IMG/VR virus record: IMGVR_UViG_3300010270_000394
Span: 36,982 to 100,981 of that record
Direction: 5' to 3' (one strand)
From: a virus
Taxonomy: Duplodnaviria; Caudoviricetes
DNA length: 64,000 nucleotides
Made by a program: the position numbers and the translations under genes. Shown in pieces: positions 1,224 through 48,043 of this stretch. Every line of letters starts with the position of its first letter. Positions within the stretch are counted from its first letter, which is position 1. The notes under the pieces are model-generated. The model ran no database searches. It worked only from the letters and a program-made list of their open reading frames with translations, and was not told where the DNA came from.

Positions 1224-1250
1224 AAAAGGCTGGTTATGCGCCAGCCTTTT
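1224..1250. terminator. Bidirectional intrinsic terminator
   Basis: AAAAGGCTGG-ttatgcg-CCAGCCTTTT between convergent genes. Confidence 0.7.
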
Positions 1251-2451
1251 CTTTTTGCATCTGCTTGATGATTCGGTCGATCTCCCGCGCCACCAGCACA
1301 AAATCATCCTCTATATAACCCTTGGTCGTCATCGCCGCCGTTCCGATCCGAATACCGGACGTGAGCTGCGGCGAACGAGTTTCATTCGGAATACAATTCT
1401 TATTCAGAGAAATATCGTGCCGATCCAGACGTTCTTGAACTTCCTTGCCGGTCAATCCGGTCTTGGTAAGGTCTATCAAGAACAGATGATTGTCTGTCCC
1501 TCCGGTCACAACATCGTATCCGAGACGAATAAACTCGTCGCACATGGCGCGGCTGTTGCGAACCACCTGACGGATGTAAGTTTTGAACTGCTCCGTACAA
1601 GCCTCTTCCGCTGTGACCGCTTTTCCGGCGATGACGTGCTGCAATGCGCCGCCCTGCGTACACGGAAATACCGCGCTGTCGATCTTCTTGGCAAGTTCAG
1701 GCTTGCAGAAAATCAGACCGCCTCTTGTGCCGCGCAAGGTTTTATGCGTGGTCGTCGTGATCACGTCCGCAAGTCCAAATGGCGAAGGATGTTCACCGGC
1801 AGCAACCAAACCGGCGATATGCGACATATCCACCATGAAATACGGGCGCTGCATCGCGGTCTTGTTGTAGCACGAATAATAATCGTCAATGATCTTGTTG
1901 ATCCGACGAAAATCAATGATTCTGCTGTACGCGCTTGCTCCGGCAAGAACCAGCTTGGGATGATGTTCATGCAGCTTATGGTACAAGTCATCGTAGTCAA
2001 TCCTACCGTCCGCGTCCACGCCGTAAAATTCCACATTGAACAATTTTCCGCTGAAATTTACCGGCGAACCGTGCGTCAGATGACCTCCATCGTTTAGGCG
2101 CATGGAAAGGATCGTGTCGCCGACGTTCAGGAGCGCCATATATGCCGCGAAGTTTGCGGACGATCCGCTGTGCGGCTGAACATTGACATGATACGACGTG
2201 CCGAACACTTCACTCCACTTCTGGCAGCAGTATTCTTCCAGCTCGTCTACATACTGACAACCGCCGTAATATCTGCCGCAATTTCCAGTCATACGATATG
2301 CCGGATAACCTTCGGAGTATTTGTTTGTCAGGCACGATCCGACCGCCTTCATGACGTTTTCGCTGACAAAATTCTCGCTGGCAATCAACTCAATTGTGTT
2401 GCACTGGCGAATATGTTCTTTCTCGATAATCTCAAATACTTTCGATTCCAT
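1234..2451 (-). CDS. glyA: Serine hydroxymethyltransferase (auxiliary metabolic gene)
   Basis: LIASENF, TNKYSEGYP, RYYGG, VNVQPHSGS, GGHLTHG and TTTTHKTLRG (PLP lysine) motifs. Confidence 0.97.
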   Translation of the reverse strand: MESKVFEIIEKEHIRQCNTIELIASENFVSENVMKAVGSCLTNKYSEGYPAYRMTGNCGRYYGGCQYVDELEEYCCQKWSEVFGTSYHVNVQPHSGSSANFAAYMALLNVGDTILSMRLNDGGHLTHGSPVNFSGKLFNVEFYGVDADGRIDYDDLYHKLHEHHPKLVLAGASAYSRIIDFRRINKIIDDYYSCYNKTAMQRPYFMVDMSHIAGLVAAGEHPSPFGLADVITTTTHKTLRGTRGGLIFCKPELAKKIDSAVFPCTQGGALQHVIAGKAVTAEEACTEQFKTYIRQVVRNSRAMCDEFIRLGYDVVTGGTDNHLFLIDLTKTGLTGKEVQERLDRHDISLNKNCIPNETRSPQLTSGIRIGTAAMTTKGYIEDDFVLVAREIDRIIKQMQKEKAGA

Positions 2452-2582
2452 TACGCGCTTTCCCTTTCCTGTTCTTCAAGTTCATGATATGCTTCAGATA
2501 CGGTGTCCGCAGAGAGGATAAAATTGCCGGAACTATCACGGACTTCAACGTGTCCGTTAATGTGAAAGATGGCGTAGTTCAT
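2451..2582 (-). CDS. Small hypothetical protein (43 aa)
   Basis: ATG at 2582 with GGAGG RBS; the longer track ORF overlaps a tRNA-like element. Confidence 0.6.
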   Translation of the reverse strand: MNYAIFHINGHVEVRDSSGNFILSADTVSEAYHELEEQERESA

Positions 2583-2611
2583 AATATCCTCCATTATTGT
2601 ATTTCTTGTTA

Positions 2612-2683
2612 TGGCGGCAGATGCCGGAATCGAACCGGCGTTTCCGTGTGAACCACAGCGTATTACCACTATACGAATCCACC
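2612..2683 (-). tRNA. Atypical tRNA-like RNA (Glu-like TTC, shortened anticodon arm)
   Basis: Acceptor GGTGGAT/ATCTGCC+GCCA, D arm GTAT-AGTGGTA-ATAC, T loop TTCGATT; anticodon stem CTGTG/CACGG closes only 5 nt (GTTCA). Confidence 0.65.
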
Positions 2684-2685
2684 GT

Positions 2686-2940
2686 AGAGGCTGCCGGATA
2701 TTGCAATTCTCCAACAGCATACCCTTGTCTGCCGTCGAAAGTGTTTATGGCTGTACGGGCGCATAAACAGCATTTCAACGTACTTCCTGCACTTGGGATG
2801 GCAAGGACTCCCTCGATACTCTTCATAGACCGAAAACACTTATCCGCGATATAAGACTCACGCGATAACGCTGCTAAAACTCTCACAGCTTTGAAGGATT
2901 TTTCCATTGTGCAGATGGCGGCGTTCACTCTGCCGTGCTA
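2686..2940 (-). ncRNA. Candidate structured ncRNA (about 255 nt)
   Basis: Region inside the tRNA cluster with several hairpins (GCAGA/TCTGC, TTATCGCG/CGCGGATAA, GTTTATG/CATAAAC, GCTGTTGGA/TCCGGCAGC) and no convincing ORF. Confidence 0.4.
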
Positions 2941-3088
2941 TGGATAACAGCTCGACGATGTATCCGGAAGGAGGTGAGACACATGGATTCGTCAAGAGAA
3001 AGGAGAACAAGATGTCAGAACAAGAGAAGAACCGTCTGATCTTTTTTGATGATTTGTCGCTCGGCAAAGCGATTCGAGCTGCTATCCA
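2941..3088 (-). ncRNA. Candidate anti-Shine-Dalgarno sRNA
   Basis: 15-bp closing stem (3088-3074 with 2955-2941); internal loops UCACCUCCUUC and UUCUCCUUUCUC; begins 1 nt after the tRNA-Lys CCA. Confidence 0.55.
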
Positions 3089-3089
3089 G

Positions 3090-3165
3090 TGGTGCGTCAG
3101 GAGAGGATCGAACTCTCGACTTACAGATTAAAGGTCTGTTACTCTGCCAACTGAGTTACTGACGC
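3090..3165 (-). tRNA. tRNA-Lys(TTT) with C33
   Basis: Full 76-nt cloverleaf, anticodon loop CCTTTAA, encoded CCA. Confidence 0.9.
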
Positions 3166-3171
3166 ATATAG

Positions 3172-3245
3172 AACAGAAGGCAAGAATCGAACTCGCGCAT
3201 AGCAAGCCGTTTATGCTTGCCGTGTTACCACTTCACCACTTCTGT
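3172..3245 (-). tRNA. Atypical tRNA-like RNA (extended anticodon arm, no CCA)
   Basis: Acceptor ACAGAAG/CTTCTGT, D loop AAGTGGTAA, T loop TTCGATT; anticodon stem GCAAGC/GCTTGC with loop ATAAACG. Confidence 0.6.
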
Positions 3246-3249
3246 TCTT

Positions 3250-3340
3250 TGGCGCAAGAGGCAGGATTTGAACCTACAACGGAGTTGATCAGACTCCACC
3301 GCTCACTTCGCGGCGCGTTTAACCATTTCGCCACTCTTGC
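3250..3340 (-). tRNA. Atypical type II (Ser-like) tRNA with non-canonical anticodon loop
   Basis: Acceptor GCAAGAG/CTCTTGC+GCCA, long variable arm GGAGT/ACTCC, T loop TTCAAAT; anticodon loop GAAGTGA lacks U33. Confidence 0.7.
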
Positions 3341-3428
3341 GTATGGCGGCTGCGTCCCCGAAAACAACCGTCATACCGAAAAGGAGGGAAAACTTTCCAA
3401 AACCGGTTAAAAACCGAGAATTGGCAAA

Positions 3429-4208
3429 TCAGGAAATCTTTGTCGCATTATCATCGTTGGTAAGCGCTGGAAATTTGAAATCCTTGAACCGCTTGAGCTG
3501 CGACTTGCTCAATCGCGGAGAAACAATCTTGAAATTCTTGATCATGTGATCCGAAACGACCACTACCGGAATTTGAGTCATTCCCATCATGCGATAGATC
3601 AGATAACTTGTATAACCGTCAAACAGCGTTCCATCGCTCTTGATGAAGATTTCCGTATCACACTTGCCGTTCTTTTTGAATTCTTCCAGACGACGGTTGA
3701 GCTTTTCCGTGTTCGGAATCGTCCGCGCAAATGCCTCCGTGATATGGATTTTCTCTGCACCGATATTAAGACGCGGGAGATTCAGGAAAACGCAGTCACA
3801 CGACGCGGCAGCTTTATCGACATAGAGTTGATTCGCCTCAAACTGAAGGACTTCTCCGACTTCCGTTTGAACAAAAAACATAGCGATTTCGTCATCCATT
3901 GTCTTATCGAAAGTCATCGAAATAATCTTGCCGCACTTGACACCGTAGATCAGGTAGTTCGGCTTGAGTCTGCCCTTGCCGCCACAATGCGGACATTCGT
4001 GTTCTGCACTGATGATCACAGGCTTTTCCGGATCGAACATATTCATCACCATTGCATAGCGGAACTGCGGATCGGAGAACTCATATTTGTTCAAGCTCCG
4101 GTAGAACTTCTTTTTGCCAGTCCCCTCACAGAGCCAACACGGTACGCTGGATTGACGCGCAAGATAAAAAACGCTTTGTCCGATTTCAAAATCAGTTTTG
4201 AACTCCAT
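3429..4208 (-). CDS. Hypothetical protein with DnaJ-type Zn-finger repeats and possible ParB-like C-terminus
   Basis: CWLCEGTG and CPHCGGKG (CxxCxGxG); LFDGYTSYL segment; AAAGGA RBS. Confidence 0.6.
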   Translation of the reverse strand: MEFKTDFEIGQSVFYLARQSSVPCWLCEGTGKKKFYRSLNKYEFSDPQFRYAMVMNMFDPEKPVIISAEHECPHCGGKGRLKPNYLIYGVKCGKIISMTFDKTMDDEIAMFFVQTEVGEVLQFEANQLYVDKAAASCDCVFLNLPRLNIGAEKIHITEAFARTIPNTEKLNRRLEEFKKNGKCDTEIFIKSDGTLFDGYTSYLIYRMMGMTQIPVVVVSDHMIKNFKIVSPRLSKSQLKRFKDFKFPALTNDDNATKIS

Positions 4209-4282
4209 AGCGAATCCTTTCTTGTAAATGTTGTTATGTTGTCTTTAGGAATGCCGGTCATCACCGGCTCTTTTCACTTGAC

Positions 4283-4311
4283 ATTATACTTGTAATTCTT
4301 GTTATTGTCAA
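4283..4311 (-). promoter_or_regulatory. Consensus sigmaA promoter whose spacer is the 17-bp motif
   Basis: TTGACA-ataacaagaattacaag-TATAAT on the minus strand. Confidence 0.9.
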
Positions 4312-4450
4312 GAGCTTTTTTGAAAATTTCCGAAAAATTCTTCAAGATCGGTTTTTCACGGCGAAACGGGCAATCACGCAAACACATGACGCAGCGCTGT
4401 CCGCAGGAATGATCCGCGCTTGGATAAATACCGGCGACCGGCTGCATGGT

Positions 4451-5092
4451 TTAATCTCCGTATGGGCTTCCCCACTGGAAATCCCACTCAACACGATAGC
4501 CGTCCGAATTGAACTTATAGAAATGATTATGTACGCCGTCACCGTAGAAATACTCATAATCCACCGGCAACACACGACCGACATCCTCCGAGCCGTTACG
4601 CTCCGCGTTCCAGCGTTCCAGAACGTCATAAGAAAGTTCAAGCAGATCATCCCACACGGGAGAGCTGGAACGATAGGCAAACTGGTTCTGCTGCGTCAGA
4701 ATTTCCGCAATGGTATCGGGAAACTCCGGATCATCAATGCGATTGAGCGCCGTCCAAACAACAGCGGCTTTCTCTGCTTTGCTCGGTACGCCGCGACATT
4801 CCGCATACATTAATTTTGCAAGCATGATCGCGTCATCATCCGTATAATACTTGACAGGTTCAGGCTCGGCTTCCGGCTGCGGCTCTTCCAGTTCGATCAT
4901 TGCAGAACTGTACTGTACGAGACTTTCCATTGTCGGCATGGACTCCTGCGCCGCCTTCAGCTCGTCTACCTGTGTCTGCAAAGACCGAATCTTCAAGTTG
5001 TTGATCATGATTCCGGTCATGAGGACTGCCATAAATACCATAATAGCAAGCACCTCATAAAAGATTTTACACTGTTTTCTTCGTTCTGTCAT
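4451..5092 (-). CDS. SleB-like cell wall hydrolase (Hydrolase_2) with N-terminal TM anchor
   Basis: LAKLMYAECRG...ALNRIDDPEFPDTIAEILTQQNQF. Confidence 0.8.
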   Translation of the reverse strand: MTERRKQCKIFYEVLAIMVFMAVLMTGIMINNLKIRSLQTQVDELKAAQESMPTMESLVQYSSAMIELEEPQPEAEPEPVKYYTDDDAIMLAKLMYAECRGVPSKAEKAAVVWTALNRIDDPEFPDTIAEILTQQNQFAYRSSSPVWDDLLELSYDVLERWNAERNGSEDVGRVLPVDYEYFYGDGVHNHFYKFNSDGYRVEWDFQWGSPYGD

Positions 5093-5122
5093 TTTTCCAT
5101 AGTCTCCTTCTTGTAATTATTG

Positions 5123-5983
5123 TTATTCAAGTCCAATGAGACGATTAATATACTCCGGCTGTTGATGAAAAATCGGAATATCATAATCAATTACCCACTT
5201 GTTGCGAGTGAGAACGTTTTCTCCATCGGTCTGTGCAACTCCATTATGGACAATCGGCATTGGCTTTTTGATGCAGCATACGCCGCGCTTGCTCCGCGTT
5301 GTATAGTTGTTCCAGTTGATTCCCTTCTCCACGAAAAGCATTTCCTGAATATCGTTACAGGATTTTCCATGAAGCTGCTTGTGAGAGAAATTTGCCTGAC
5401 CGACCATCTGAATACTGTTGCGCGTTGCGTCCTGTTGCCGCCATTCCAGCACATTCATCACGTCATCGCACGGAACGTTAAATACGCGGGAATCAAACAA
5501 CGCTCCGCGATCCAACGCTTTATTGTAAGCGACGCATATACATTCCTCTACTGCAAACGTGTTTTCCGGATAATCCATTTTCATATCAAGAATACGTTCG
5601 TTATGTGACGCAACACATTTTGCAAACGCACGATTGAATGCCAAAGTCGCCATCGACGCGGAAATACTGGTAATTTTTTCCACATTATAGTCAAACCACG
5701 CATCCGAGGTCAAAGTCTGATAGTCGATCAGAACAAGCGTGATCTCGTCAGACTGTGTATAGCCGAGGACGCAGCCCTGAATGTTCTCGCAGAGATATTT
5801 CATCGTATCTTCCATCGCGTTCATCAAAACAAAATCAAACGGTTTTTGAAAACCGCGCGTGAACGTGTGAAACGCCTTGCCGTCCAGACGGATAATCACC
5901 GGTACGCGGCGCGTCAGGAACACCTTCGGCACTGCTTCATAGGTTTTCATCCGATCTCCAAGACTGTCGTGCTTATTGCTCAT
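5123..5983 (-). CDS. tRNA(His) guanylyltransferase Thg1-like protein (3'-5' polymerase)
   Basis: DRMKTYE, IIRLDGKAFHTFT, YTQSDEI, FDSR and WRQQDATRNSI motifs. Confidence 0.93.
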   Translation of the reverse strand: MSNKHDSLGDRMKTYEAVPKVFLTRRVPVIIRLDGKAFHTFTRGFQKPFDFVLMNAMEDTMKYLCENIQGCVLGYTQSDEITLVLIDYQTLTSDAWFDYNVEKITSISASMATLAFNRAFAKCVASHNERILDMKMDYPENTFAVEECICVAYNKALDRGALFDSRVFNVPCDDVMNVLEWRQQDATRNSIQMVGQANFSHKQLHGKSCNDIQEMLFVEKGINWNNYTTRSKRGVCCIKKPMPIVHNGVAQTDGENVLTRNKWVIDYDIPIFHQQPEYINRLIGLE

Positions 5984-6215
5984 AGTTTTCCTCACTTTCA
6001 AATCCAGCAATGACACATTGCATTATTTGTTGCTCTTTTTTCTTTTGTCGATATAGATTTGCTTGTCGCAGTTGATTTTTCTCTGCGTCATGCAGCATTT
6101 TCACAAGAATATCAATTGCTTCTTCCTCGTCTTTATTATTGTATCCAACGTGAAAATTCTCCATCGCTTCAATCGCCATGTTTAACGCAACAATTTTCTT
6201 TTTACTCAAGTACAT
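5973..6215 (-). CDS. Hypothetical protein
   Basis: ORF with GAGGG RBS, coupled to the Thg1-like gene. Confidence 0.6.
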   Translation of the reverse strand: MYLSKKKIVALNMAIEAMENFHVGYNNKDEEEAIDILVKMLHDAEKNQLRQANLYRQKKKEQQIMQCVIAGFESEENYEQ

Positions 6216-18980: not shown

Positions 18981-21900
18981 TTAACCGTAAAATTTCCAGA
19001 CTTCAAAACAAGCCGTTATTTCATCAATGACCGGATCAAGAATGCCGTCCGGCGCTTTGTGGTAACGCTTCATCCATGCTGCATAATCCGCGCAACGGTC
19101 AAGCGGCAATTCCGGCGTTTGTCCGTTCCTGATTCTTTCGCATGAACGCTTGATTTGTGCAAGCCGCTTTTCCGTTGTCATTGGTTGCCGCTCCTTCCTC
19201 TATGCGCCGTTTCGCGCCGTCTGTACTGCGTTTTTGAACGCTGTATAATTTTCGTCCGTTTCATCTGCTATGCGTTCTTCCGCTGCGTCAATCTCTGCAA
19301 GGATCGCTTTTGAAAGTCTCTTGCAACGTCTGATTGTTTGTCCGCTTGTCCATGAGTTGATATATACTTCGCGGATCACAAAGTTATAATGTGTTTCGTC
19401 CGGCGCAATCAATACGCAATCGCCATTGCCTAATGTGCCTTCCGCAAGCTGCTTTAACTCATATCCAGCTTGCAAACATTCATTGATCAATTCTGTCGTT
19501 CCGGCAATATCATAAATATTTGTAACGCGCCGTTTTCCGCTCAACATTTCCTTAACTGTACTTTCATATCGTTGATCAATTACTTTAATCTTTGCCATTT
19601 GTCGCGCCGTCCTTCCTCTGTTTTGTAATTGTTGTTATGTCCGTTTTGATCCTCTGTTGTGCCGCTGCTGATACACTAGCACAATATAACAACAATTACA
19701 AGTAGCTTTCGCAAATTTCTGTATTCGCCGTTTTGATGTTTTTTCCAGAATGGATTATTATTTGTAATTGTTGTTATGCGTCGAAAACTTCCAGCGCCAA
19801 AACAGACAAGCCCAACAAAAGCAAGTTGACGCAAGCCCAAATAATAGCCGTCCAGAATTCCGCGCCGGTTGTACTCTGTTCGGCTGCGCCTATATTGCCG
19901 ATCATCAGGACGAAAAACAAAGGGATCATATATCCGGCAATCGTCCGCGCCGTTTTTAAAAGTTTCATGTTGTGCCGTCCTTCCTATATCATAGCAATTA
20001 GGGAAAATTCCAGCTTGCTAATTGTTCTATATTTCGGATCGCGCCAATTTGCCAAATCTACGCGCCATTGTTTCAGAATTCCGCAAAGGATCACAACGAC
20101 TTCCGCAAGCTGCAATACGCCGTTTTCTATGTCCTCTAAATATAGGTTATATTCGCCGTTTGGATCATTGCGCTGCATGAATGCAAGCGCCTTCTGTAAT
20201 GTCTGTTTGTCCTGATTTGTCATTATCCGCGCCTCTTTTCTAGTCAATTTTCCGGCGCTTTGCCGTCCGTCCAGCGTTCAAAATGCTTGTTGTGCTGCAC
20301 AACCGCGCCATAAAGAAAACCGGCGCAATAATCCGCATTTTCGCAAAACTGAATATAACTTGATGTGAATTCTTCCGGCTTTACGTCCGGATCACGAAAA
20401 ATCAAAATTGCGCCGTCTTGCGTCTTATAAAACGCCGGATCAAAAAAGTTTGCCTTGAATGCGTCAAGATACTTTTCAATTCTTGCCGCTTCCGTTGCCG
20501 TAAATTTGCGGCTATCGTTCATAACGATCATTTATAAAACCGTCCTTCCGTCATTTTTTCAGAATGCCGCACAACCGCATTTTTCGCGCCGTCAAGCGCT
20601 TGATTTGCCGCGCCGGTATTCTGTACGCCGTCAAGCTGCAAGCCGTCCAGCGCGGCAAATTACGCCGTTCTTATGCGGTCAAATCGTCAACTTCTCTAAA
20701 GCCGTTCTTTTCTAACTGTTTCCGCAATTCGTCATAGTCGCGGCTTTTAATTTCGATCCCTTCCGTTATCATGTGTGGATCAAGTCTTGTATACGTCCGG
20801 TTGTCCGTATCGACTGCAATATATTTTCTATTTCCGTTGACGTTTCGCGCCGTCTTAAACTGCATAATCATAAAATCAACCTTCCTTCCATTCATCAAGA
20901 AATTGTTTTGTAATATCCGTTTCTTTGTATCCGTTGTTATGCGCTGCAAGCGCAATTATTTTTGATACTGTATAGCCATTTTTCCGCGCCGTTTTCATGC
21001 CGCGCAACGCAAGCGCGTTTAATTCGATTGCATGAAATAGCAACTTTTCCGCGCCGTCTTTCATTCCGTAGACTTTCGCAAGGTTGTATTGTCCGCGAAC
21101 GTTTAACAATTTTTCCATGCTGCAACCGTCCTTCCGTCAAGCTACGCCGTCTTTCCGGATCGCGTCAAGCAACTTTTCAACTTCCGATTTGACCGGATCA
21201 AGAACGGAATAATCACAACCGTATTTTGCAAGGTACTTTTTCAGTTGTTCGGAAGTCGCGCGATATTCCGCGCCGTATTCGTTTTCAAGCGCCGTATTTG
21301 CAAAATCAAGAAAAGCATTCCAAATAATAGCATTCAAAGAACGGCGCTTATAATTTGCGGCAATATCGCGCAAAATGGACTTTTTGCCGCTTCCGCGATT
21401 ATGCCTATATACAATATCAAACTGCATATAAATTTGATCGTTCAAATAGTCCGCATTCAACTTCATGTTTCCAGTATTCAAAAAGTAGCTATCCAGCGCG
21501 TTAAAAGTGTAATTCTGATTAGTCATTGCAATATGCCTTCCCTTCTTAAATATAGCCGTATTTCATCCAGCGCCGCGCAAGTTTCCGCGCGTCTTTGATC
21601 GTATCAGCGCCGCAAATTTGCACATATGCGCCGTAAAAATCGTTATAGTATAACAAGCTATACTTTGCGTTAAAACCGTTGCGCGGCTTGAGATTAAGCG
21701 CGAATTTTACGCCGTCAATTGTGAATTCTCTACTACTCATTTTTACGCCGTCCTTCCGTCCATTGCGAAACGTGCGCCAAAACTGAAATAAACGTTTTTC
21801 TTGCTAATTTCAACCGGATCAAGATATTTCAGGTTTAACCGCTGCACTTCGACTTCGCGCAATGTGTATAACTCATTTGCTATATAAATATCGCCGTTGT

Positions 21901-38204: not shown

Positions 38205-38238
38205 TATAACAACAATTACAAGAAAGGACAATAATACT

Positions 38239-39990: not shown

Positions 39991-40066
39991 TGCGGAGTGG
40001 AGCAGATGGCAGCTCGTCAGGTTCATGCCCTGAAGGTCAGTGGTTCAAGTCCACTCTCCGCAACCA
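39991..40066 (+). tRNA. tRNA-Met(CAT), initiator-like
   Basis: Cloverleaf, loop TTCATGC, fMet-like D arm, CCA. Confidence 0.85.
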
Positions 40067-40157
40067 AGGATAGCGGGTACAGTTTGCGGACTGTACGGAG
40101 GATGAAAACCACCTCCCGTCGTTCCTACCGGCAGAAGTCGAAAGACAGTAGGAATTT

Positions 40158-40243
40158 GCTGGTGTGATGGAATGGCAGACATGGCAGATTCAAAATCTGT
40201 TGGCGGCAACGTCGTGAGAGTTCAAGTCTCTCCACCAGCACCA
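40158..40243 (+). tRNA. tRNA-Leu(CAA)
   Basis: Loop TTCAAAA, long variable arm, CCA. Confidence 0.92.
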
Positions 40244-40246
40244 TAC

Positions 40247-40320
40247 AGCGGTGTGGTCTAATGGCAGGACACGAGACTTTGACTCTCGCATTGTTGGTTC
40301 GATCCCAACCGCCGCCGCCA
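40247..40320 (+). tRNA. tRNA-Gln(TTG)
   Basis: Loop CTTTGAC, T loop TTCGATC, CCA. Confidence 0.9.
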
Positions 40321-40392
40321 AACATTGTCCCTTGCGGACGCTTGAAAATGACAATGAAAGGCGCTTCTTCGGAAGCGTCTTTCGCTATATAT

Positions 40393-40468
40393 GGTCTGTT
40401 AGCTCAGTTGGTAGAGCAATCGGCTGTTAACCGATGTGTCGTAGGTTCGAGTCCTACACAGACCGCCA
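40393..40468 (+). tRNA. tRNA-Asn(GTT)
   Basis: Loop CTGTTAA, CCA. Confidence 0.93.
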
Positions 40469-46972: not shown

Positions 46973-48043
46973 ATGGCTTGCAATATGGATAGACTTGTTA
47001 ATTTTACCGAGTCTCAGAAGCAGTTGATCGCCCTTGGTGTTGACAATTACACCGGCGACATCGGCAACTTCACCGCTGATAACGTTGATACGTCCGCGAA
47101 GTCGATGGACGAGACGATTCGTGAGCGTTTCACCAACGAGATCATGCACGGTGAGAAGTTCAATTATCGTACTTTCCGCAAGTACAAGAACGACATCTAT
47201 GCGATTATCGAGGAAACTCTTGATCAGACTCTTCCGGAGGGTTGGAGCGATAACGAGTTCATGAACCGTTTCGTTGAGATTCGCCGTGTGGACTTGGGCG
47301 ACGAGCCGGAGTTCTATGCCGAGGACAACAGCCTTTTGGTTGTTTCCAACTTCAGCGGCAATCATTGGGATACCATTCGTGAGCGTATGGACTTGGGTGC
47401 TTCGTTCAAGGTTGCTACGTCTTGGTGGGTTGTTCATTTCTACAACGAGTTCGAGCGCTTTATGAAGAACATCGACTCGTTCAGCCGTATGCTGGATAAG
47501 GTTCGCAAGAGCTTCCTTCAGCAGTTCCAAGACGCGATCTATGTTGCGTTCTCCAATCTCGGTGACAGCGTTCCCGCTGGCTTTACCGGTCACGGCGCTC
47601 TGTCCACCGATACCGAGCGTGACGAGCTGCTTGCTCTGATCGACAAGGTTGAAACCGGCAACCACACCAAGCCCATTATTGTCGGCACTGCTGCGGCGCT
47701 GCGTAAGCTCCAGAAGAACATCGACGAGGAATGGGTTGCTGACAGCGCCAAGGAAGAGCGCAAGCGTCAGGGCATCATCGCCTCTTGGGAGGGTTATGAT
47801 CTGATGCCGCTCAAGCAGGTGTTCAAGGCTGGTACGTTTACCTTTGCCCTGTCCAACACCCGTTTGCTCATTGTTGCGAACAACGATCAGCCGATCAAGT
47901 TCGTGTACGAGGGCGATTCCCGTGTTAAGGAAGTTACCAACAACCGCGAGAATCAGGATCAGACGCTTGAGTATCAGCTTCAGGTCAAGGCTGGTATTGC
48001 CACGGTCGCAAGCTCTATCATGGGCGAGTGGCAGTTGGCGTAA
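46973..48043 (+). CDS. Major capsid protein
   Basis: 356 aa, biased codons, followed by a terminator; synteny. Confidence 0.8.
   Translation: MACNMDRLVNFTESQKQLIALGVDNYTGDIGNFTADNVDTSAKSMDETIRERFTNEIMHGEKFNYRTFRKYKNDIYAIIEETLDQTLPEGWSDNEFMNRFVEIRRVDLGDEPEFYAEDNSLLVVSNFSGNHWDTIRERMDLGASFKVATSWWVVHFYNEFERFMKNIDSFSRMLDKVRKSFLQQFQDAIYVAFSNLGDSVPAGFTGHGALSTDTERDELLALIDKVETGNHTKPIIVGTAAALRKLQKNIDEEWVADSAKEERKRQGIIASWEGYDLMPLKQVFKAGTFTFALSNTRLLIVANNDQPIKFVYEGDSRVKEVTNNRENQDQTLEYQLQVKAGIATVASSIMGEWQLA

Follow-up and report, generated by a model that had tools for sequence, protein, structure and literature searches.

A structured unit in the tRNA operon of a rumen phage carries two tracts matching the 16S rRNA 3' tail and could mask Shine-Dalgarno sites

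Introduction

Regulatory RNAs can reportedly originate in the spacers of tRNA operons: Lalaouna et al. 2015 are said to have described 3'ETS-leuZ, an RNA that is cut from the E. coli glyW-cysT-leuZ tRNA polycistron and acts by base pairing. This Hfq-bound RNA, which ends in a terminator, serves as a sponge for RyhB and RybB. We know of no description of 16S-tail mimicry for RNAC and RNAD of phage T4, the species 1 and 2 stable RNAs, which are non-tRNA small RNAs within a phage tRNA gene cluster. Other small RNAs, namely RsaE/RoxS, the loops of S. aureus RNAIII and the alphaproteobacterial Cuckoo/alpha-r14, present C/U-rich motifs in loops or unpaired stretches that pair with Shine-Dalgarno (SD) sequences. 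RNAC and RNAD, detected by Northern blot, are referred to as RNAs of yet unknown functions (PMC9697503), and the topic of 3'ETS-leuZ is mentioned in passages of PMC5286369 and PMC8383071.

Here we describe a 148-nt unit behind a tRNA-Lys-like gene in a window of 64,000 nt, the last 64 kb of a 100,981-nt IMG/VR record that is classed as a provirus and estimated to be 79% complete. An earlier note had proposed this unit to be an sRNA that is released by tRNA processing and displays anti-SD loops. The sRNA reading is unproven; tentatively, and with less than even confidence, we read the unit as a folded module within the transcript of the tRNA operon, one that exposes tracts resembling the 16S tail and could mask SD sites.

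Results

The unit lies inside a minus-strand tRNA operon

The unit belongs to a rumen phage, its ~98% identical copies coming from bovine-gut runs, and the host is presumably an organism of the bovine gut. It occupies the first 148 nt (2941-3088) of a 406-nt gap on the minus strand between a tRNA-Lys-like and a tRNA-Glu-like gene. Read along this strand, a promoter is followed by a 259-aa ORF, three tRNA-like genes, the 406-nt gap, the tRNA-Glu-like gene, a 43-codon ORF and a serine hydroxymethyltransferase (SHMT) gene:

6016-5123: Thg1-like gene, upstream of the promoter and the tRNA cluster
4283-4311, minus strand: consensus promoter TTGACA-17-TATAAT (12/12 positions), ahead of the tRNA cluster and the 259-aa gene
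4208-3429, minus strand: 259-aa ORF without family assignment
3340-3250, minus strand: first tRNA-like gene
3245-3171, minus strand: second tRNA-like gene
3090-3165, minus strand: tRNA-Lys(UUU)-like gene (66.6 bits) with an encoded CCA (3092-3090) and C at position 33
2941-3088, minus strand: 148-nt structured unit, a multibranch fold with a 15-bp closing helix (MFE -43.8 kcal/mol, z -4.12)
2684-2940, minus strand: rest of the spacer, 257 nt, reaching the tRNA-Glu-like gene
2612-2683, minus strand: tRNA-Glu-like gene, which closes the spacer
start at 2582, minus strand: 43-codon ORF
2451-1234, minus strand: SHMT gene

The unit was placed correctly in the earlier note: it runs from 3088 to 2941 and begins 1 nt (C, 3089) past the CCA of the tRNA-Lys-like gene. 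It lies within a tRNA polycistron, on the strand of the tRNAs, with tRNA-like genes of that strand on either side (3090-3340 and 2612-2683). From the promoter at 4311-4283 to the unit we found no terminator-like site except one that coincides with the T-arm of a tRNA, and at the bounds of the unit itself (2941-3088) neither a promoter-like nor a terminator-like site was detected. Because the unit sits inside a minus-strand operon, RNA of that strand should cover it, if only as a precursor. With neither a promoter nor a terminator belonging to the unit, nothing implies a discrete 148-nt species, and the natural product bounded by RNase P would be the whole 406-nt spacer rather than an RNA of ~150 nt. 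The same-strand tRNA-like genes on both sides, the 12/12 sigma-70 promoter and the terminator-free stretch between them thus argue for an SD-masking module, whereas the missing promoter and terminator of the unit argue against it.

A 16-nt motif, ATAACAANAATTACAA, occurs at 20 sites in the window (at most 2 mismatches) compared to 0.37 expected, on the coding strand and usually just upstream of an RBS, the sites including 2597-2612 (-), 4222-4237 (-), 4290-4305 (-), 19623-19638 (-) and 38206-38221 (+). Within the consensus promoter at 4311-4283 one copy takes up the spacer, and another lies directly behind the tRNA-Glu-like gene. The motif is probably a phage-specific promoter or 5'-leader element, and on the basis of the copy behind the tRNA-Glu-like gene the small ORF and SHMT may have a transcription start of their own. 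At the far end of the operon, an XRE/ImmA pair on the plus strand (162-524 and 521-1222) converges with the minus-strand SHMT operon, leaving 11 nt between the stop codons (1222-1234). No terminator-like site was found at this convergence point, and the XRE/ImmA and SHMT transcripts may therefore each run antisense into the other by readthrough.

A predicted fold with an exposed anti-SD loop

Folding predictions divide the unit into the following parts, to which we add a third pyrimidine tract found elsewhere in the operon (X1 and X2 are the two relatives introduced below):

3074-3088, minus strand: 5' arm of the closing helix, set off from the tRNA CCA by 1 nt; unchanged in both relatives
3057-3072, minus strand: predicted inner hairpin 1, 6 bp with loop UGCC
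3009-3043, minus strand: predicted inner hairpin 2, longer and imperfect
2997-3016, minus strand: second pyrimidine tract with the CUCCUUUCU core (9-nt 16S-tail match), mostly unpaired
2958-2984, minus strand: anti-SD hairpin, 8 bp, with loop CACCUCCUUCC, of which 10 nt (UCACCUCCUU) are common to the 16S 3' tail; identical in X1 and X2
2941-2955, minus strand: 3' arm of the closing helix, changed in the relatives at 2947 (A>G) and 2950 (G>A)
3380-3387, minus strand: third pyrimidine tract, CCUCCUUU; it belongs to the leader that precedes the first tRNA-like gene and has no plus-strand start codon

The 15-bp closing stem, as drawn in the earlier note, pairs UGGAUAGCAGCUCGA (3088-3074) with UCGAGCUGUUAUCCA (2955-2941) through 14 Watson-Crick pairs and one G-U. 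The minus-strand energy of -43.8 kcal/mol compares with -29.9 ± 3.4 for dinucleotide shuffles, and 0/200 shuffles folded as well. The hairpin proposed to expose an anti-SD loop is likewise part of the MFE fold, with 8 bp (AUGUGUCU/GGAUACAU, including 2 G-U) around the 11-nt loop CACCUCCUUCC at 2976-2966. The predicted unpaired probability of this loop is 0.87-1.00 by partition function, in line with SD masking.

Raw folding energy cannot choose between the strands, because the plus strand folds about equally well (-45.9 kcal/mol, z -2.95), and this equality counts against the SD-masking module. Conversely, three G-U pairs of the closing helix and the anti-SD hairpin form on the minus strand only, and both elements are complete only there, which, along with the z of -4.12, speaks for it.

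The two longest 16S-tail matches of the window lie in the unit

We scanned both strands of the 64 kb for substrings of at least 8 nt of the complement of GATCACCTCCTTTCTA. The two longest matches on either strand, AAGGAGGTGA at 2968 (10 nt) and AGAAAGGAG at 2997 (9 nt), sit on the plus strand 29 nt apart, and the minus strand of the unit reads 10 and 9 nt of the 16S tail. The resemblance of the loop to the 16S 3' tail that the earlier note had pointed out thus holds, at 10 nt the longest in the window, and the double match is not chance. The second tract named there, GACAUCUUGUUCUCCUUUC, is present at 3016-2998 and is indeed the antisense of an RBS plus ATG. Both SD-complementary pyrimidine motifs, loop CACCUCCUUCC and the second tract, fall in regions predicted to be unpaired, the CUCCUUUCU core being mostly single-stranded in the prediction (unpaired probability 0.76-0.97). 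SD-dependent initiation is in use, since ~70% of crude gene starts in the phage record carry SD-like motifs. The proximity of the two longest matches, the high share of SD-like starts and the leader tract CCUCCUUU, which has no start codon on its plus strand, all favour an SD-masking module. The same two matches weigh against a neutral origin of the unit (see below), for two best SD matches within 29 nt, each with an ATG, are unlikely in decayed sequence.

The plus strand of the same sequence reads as two gene starts:

2983-3039, plus strand: mini-ORF1, 18 codons (6 AGR Arg), 5 nt after AAGGAGGTGA
3012-3131, plus strand: mini-ORF2, 39 codons, 6 nt after AGAAAGGAG, overlapping mini-ORF1 out of frame

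Both have an open frame and a start codon preceded by an SD at the right distance. The SD-to-ATG spacing of 5-6 nt is that of the phage's real gene starts, the SD matches are stronger than at any of those, and the probability of finding CAU twice at RBS spacing by chance is estimated at ~0.01. A generic anti-SD RNA needs no ATG complement at exact RBS spacing; real or former plus-strand start sites are therefore indicated, which counts against SD masking for both tracts. These start-like features, together with a T-run behind the mini-ORF1 stop, suggest that one or both mini-ORFs might be translated from an antisense transcript, the minus-strand anti-SD loops being the mere complement. We regard such translation as improbable. 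No sigma-70-like promoter was found on the plus strand within 900 nt upstream and no plus-strand copy of the phage's 16-nt upstream motif near the mini-ORFs, and the surrounding genes and tRNAs are all on the minus strand, with no plus-strand operon setting. The ORFs overlap out of frame, the final 14 codons of mini-ORF2 (42 nt, stop included) are antisense to the tRNA-Lys-like gene, and the T-run is preceded by a weak hairpin that was not called as a terminator. Neither Pfam nor a tblastn search of 50,697 phage records gave a match to the peptides, which also lack a paralog in the record, and a search of 1.84 billion representative proteins gave four long repetitive proteins that match the tRNA-antisense part, none of them of mini-ORF size, in other words repeat or tRNA-antisense artefacts. 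The quiet plus strand (promoter, motif and peptide homologs) is in turn a point for the SD-masking module. A guess from the string LGKAIRAAI that the mini-ORF2 peptide is a remnant of an XRE-type gene found no support in Pfam or tblastn and was rejected.

Close relatives keep the anti-SD hairpin but divide on structure

The sequencing runs listed as containing the region included no RNA run. Variation was read from Logan contigs (DNA), which cover the unit at ~98% identity in X1 and X2, two bovine gut metagenomes of different studies; the contigs of two further runs, X5 and X7, leave it uncovered. X1 and X2 share the substitutions 2947 A>G, 2950 G>A, 2956 C>T and 3017 A>G, and X1 also has 3059 G>T. 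On the minus strand the change at 2947 turns a G-U into a G-C pair and that at 2950 a G-C into a G-U pair, so that the closing helix is kept, while the plus strand has an A.C mismatch in each haplotype. The change at 2956 falls at an unpaired position. At 3017 the minus strand acquires a C.A mismatch in inner hairpin 2 where the plus strand retains a G.U pair, and 3059 G>T disrupts, on both strands alike, a G-C pair in inner hairpin 1. In mini-ORF2, 3017 (TCA>TCG) and 3059 (TCG>TCT) are synonymous third positions (2/2 changes), an outcome estimated at ~6% by chance; in mini-ORF1 the one change (1/1), at 3017, is non-synonymous (Q>R).

The synonymous pair and the G.U retained at 3017 add to the case for translated mini-ORFs, from which the chance level of ~6% and the replacement in mini-ORF1 detract. 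Two substitutions speak for minus-strand structure, one speaks for the plus strand and one against either, and 2/2 are synonymous; statistically the tally is a draw. The fold and covariation check suggested in the earlier note thus had two outcomes: the fold stands out from its shuffles, but covariation does not emerge from relatives that are only ~98% identical and whose changes are split. In favour of an SD-masking module, the helix and the anti-SD hairpin are intact in the two ~98% relatives, the arm changes being G-U/G-C exchanges; against it, two changes harm inner hairpins of the minus strand, and inner hairpins 1 and 2, themselves predictions, are probably not under selection.

Divergence of the unit is no slower than that of its neighbours, with 5/148 nt changed compared to 2/257 in the adjacent spacer and 0/207 in the tRNAs. 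Strong purifying selection on the unit is not evident, because it changed more than spacer and tRNAs, and this too argues against SD masking. Such divergence would suit a neutral or structural spacer, whose helix acts as a pre-tRNA processing or stability element (for instance a double-strand RNase site, or an exonuclease block beside the CCA) and whose SD-like tracts are former plus-strand starts or captured filler DNA with no role in trans. This explanation is possible, if on the unlikely side. The orphan status of the unit, its faster divergence relative to the adjacent spacer and tRNAs and the inner hairpins that were not maintained all fit it. By contrast, the anti-SD hairpin and both tracts are unchanged in X1 and X2 despite 5/148 changed positions, and the inverted repeat keeps its pairing through wobble changes, neither of which a neutral spacer would lead one to expect. 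As a separate observation, the X7 relative has a 30-nt insertion after 2813, and the 257-nt part of the spacer therefore tolerates a change in length.

Inverted repeats with arms of at least 15 nt at 93% identity or more and no more than 300 nt apart occur at only two other places in the window, both of them parts of a repeated 16-nt motif. As terminal inverted repeats that match at 14/15 positions and flank 118 bp, the arms of the unit could also belong to a DNA-level element, either a miniature inverted-repeat mobile insertion or a segment invertible between the 15-bp repeats, and a flip would put both RBS-ATG units on the transcribed strand. Of all the explanations weighed here we give this one the least credence. 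The unit is single-copy in the 100,981-nt record, the 27 one-arm matches in IMG/VR are chance matches that have neither second arm nor interior, no target-site duplication was seen, and the contigs of four runs, in which rare forms would be hidden, contain no inverted junction. Moreover, the arm mismatch differs between haplotypes, and mini-ORF2 would still stop at ~31 codons after the notional flip.

The unit is an orphan in a rearranged region

No homolog of the unit beyond ~98% identity was found in IMG/VR, JGI metagenomes, GTDB genomes or INPHARED phages, hence no covariation, a further point against the SD-masking module. Rfam searches up to E 10 placed no family on the unit, only tRNAs, and gave no signal of a retron, T-box, GOLLD/ROOL or tmRNA; a YrlA-like Rfam match (E 0.11) falls on the tRNAs outside the unit and was set aside. 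With the unit region as query, blastn against INPHARED returned the tRNA-Lys only, and exact-pattern scans with one arm, the hairpin or the tRNA/unit junction in IMG/VR, JGI metagenomes and GTDB genomes yielded chance matches or none. At the loci of relatives of the Thg1-like gene (17 loci, 42-60% aa) and of SHMT (16 loci, 59-90% aa) the unit is absent and the tRNA-Lys part alone matches, and it was not found in five whole records taken from among the related large phages with these 33 loci. The 259-aa gene has no relatives in IMG/VR, JGI metagenomes or GTDB genomes, and a search of 5.8 billion proteins gave near-identical cluster mates only.

The closest SHMT relatives (90% aa) differ in gene order and have no tRNA cluster before SHMT, an absence of the whole cluster that agrees with a neutral or structural spacer. 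In these relatives (L046 and L047) the Thg1-like gene directly follows SHMT (3001-4951), and in our window (1234-6016) it lies ~2.7 kb upstream of SHMT with the tRNA cluster in between. Since the order of SHMT and Thg1-like genes differs and the cluster is missing in relatives, the region has been rearranged and is fluid.

Neither a target nor a wider class stands out

We scored, by duplex energy, the pairing of the unit or of the two tracts it exposes with crude start regions of the whole record (165; 355). The complementarity to a capsid RBS, which the earlier note had raised as a loose match, is not special, ranking 25/165 and 76/355 among start regions, and we attribute it to chance and dropped it as a target. 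Nor did the ORF at 46973 prove identifiable as the capsid gene, its only match being phrog_4088 (function unknown), so that PHROGs gives no capsid identity. The operon's own start regions rank low (276-324 of 355 for loop 1). No outlier target appeared among the 165 or 355 phage start regions, the top matches being genes with strong SDs; this speaks against the SD-masking module and is in keeping with a neutral or structural spacer.

In 57 distinct inter-tRNA spacers from the window and related loci, read on the tRNA strand, we counted 13 anti-SD and 19 SD-like matches of at least 7 nt. This absence of enrichment is another point against SD masking, and the finding that the spacers of related tRNA clusters are long, mutually unrelated and not enriched in anti-SD tracts is one for a neutral or structural spacer. 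A scan of IMG/VR for a T-loop followed after 15-45 nt by CACCTCCTT gave at least 120 matches compared to 5 for the reversed motif. The matches listed, at least 120, collapse to 7 families, one of 101 near-identical contigs and four in which the motif is the anticodon arm of the next tRNA, and the excess is unusable as class support owing to this collapse. The two enrichment tests did not confirm a general class of anti-SD RNAs in tRNA spacers.

Some individual spacers are recorded here as observations in their own right. In a large family of ~45-kb phages, made up of L072 (2896-2952) and about 100 similar IMG/VR contigs, a T-loop-like GGTTCGAATCC is followed 37 nt on by GGCUCACCUCCUUG, and the upstream sequence is not an obvious tRNA. 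In a related 168-kb phage (L057), an insert of ~75 nt behind the anticodon stem appears to interrupt a tRNA gene at 202-354, which ARAGORN missed; the spacer tract AUCACCUCUUUCUA downstream of it (388-402) copies the 16S tail except for one missing C. In the second tRNA cluster of our window, a hairpin in the Met-Leu spacer (40095-40122, plus strand) pairs GGAGG with CCUCC, and here the anti-SD is paired, not displayed.

Aberrant anticodon loops and a MazF/PemK-like gene nearby

The bodies of all four tRNA-like genes of the operon are intact, but their anticodon loops are non-canonical ('Lys' has C33, 'Glu' G33, the 91-nt 'Thr' A33 and 'Phe(AAA)' C37); the four tRNAs of the second cluster (39991-40468) score normally. 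A PemK/MazF-like toxin gene (Pfam E 6.6e-34; L196 2280-2627, minus strand) lies about 0.9-1.2 kb before the window start and ~3.8 kb from the unit, and the 283-aa ORF upstream of it has no Pfam family. MazF toxins that remove the 16S anti-SD are reportedly documented (PMC12274833). The aberrant anticodon loops and the MazF/PemK gene ~3.8 kb away suggested the idea, towards which the adjoining Thg1-like enzyme gene was also counted, that the operon is a battery of RNA decoys and the unit its fifth member, a 16S-tail mimic that soaks up, or acts as an RNA antidote to, an endoribonuclease cutting the anti-SD. The candidate nuclease would be a host toxin of the MazF/PemK type or the phage's own MazF/PemK. 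We hold this decoy idea to be very unlikely.

Discussion

Our tentative preference is for an SD-masking module of the tRNA-operon transcript, and the following course of events would fit it. Judging from gene order and the lack of terminators, the promoter at 4311-4283 would start a transcript that runs through the 259-aa gene, the three tRNA-like genes, the unit and the 257-nt spacer to the tRNA-Glu-like gene, and the spacer would be released once RNase P has cut at 2683 and the tRNA 3' end has matured at 3090. The 15-bp helix, 1 nt past the CCA, may delimit and protect a compact domain or may itself be a site for a double-strand nuclease. The domain would present two pyrimidine tracts that are identical to 10 and 9 nt of the 16S 3' tail, a match that the sequence itself shows, and that are single-stranded in the predicted fold. 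These tracts could then pair with SD regions and reduce initiation on strongly SD-dependent messages of host or phage.

If the minus-strand RNA is real and active, the phage would possess a device that copies the mRNA-docking tail of the ribosome and is co-produced with tRNAs. It might provide cheap damping of SD-dependent translation or serve as a decoy for nucleases aimed at the 16S tail, and the non-tRNA RNAs of phage tRNA clusters, long without an explanation, would gain a function. As a single orphan case with an ambiguous strand assignment, the unit is not a stand-alone discovery.

Compared to the known systems, the unit shares with T4 RNAC/RNAD its place as a candidate non-tRNA RNA within a phage tRNA gene cluster; those RNAs were seen experimentally, whereas the unit is known from sequence and has no Rfam match. 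With 3'ETS-leuZ it has in common that a spacer RNA of a tRNA polycistron would lie beside a tRNA 3' end, but the unit is operon-internal, has no terminator, carries anti-SD tracts instead of sRNA-binding sites and bears no sequence relation to 3'ETS-leuZ. The features by which SD-occluding sRNAs are recognised, namely a promoter and terminator of their own, a family match, and conservation with covariation, are missing from the unit: RsaE/RoxS, RNAIII and Cuckoo/alpha-r14 have their own promoters and terminators and form conserved families with Rfam models, and the unit has none of these and no relatives. By prediction, its C/U-rich motifs in loops and unpaired stretches would nevertheless pair with SD sequences as those of RsaE/RoxS, RNAIII and Cuckoo/alpha-r14 do, and its loop copies 10 nt of the 16S tail compared to the CCC/UCCC motif of RsaE/RoxS-type RNAs. 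At most by analogy, then, the unit may work like T4 RNAC/RNAD, 3'ETS-leuZ and RsaE/RoxS.
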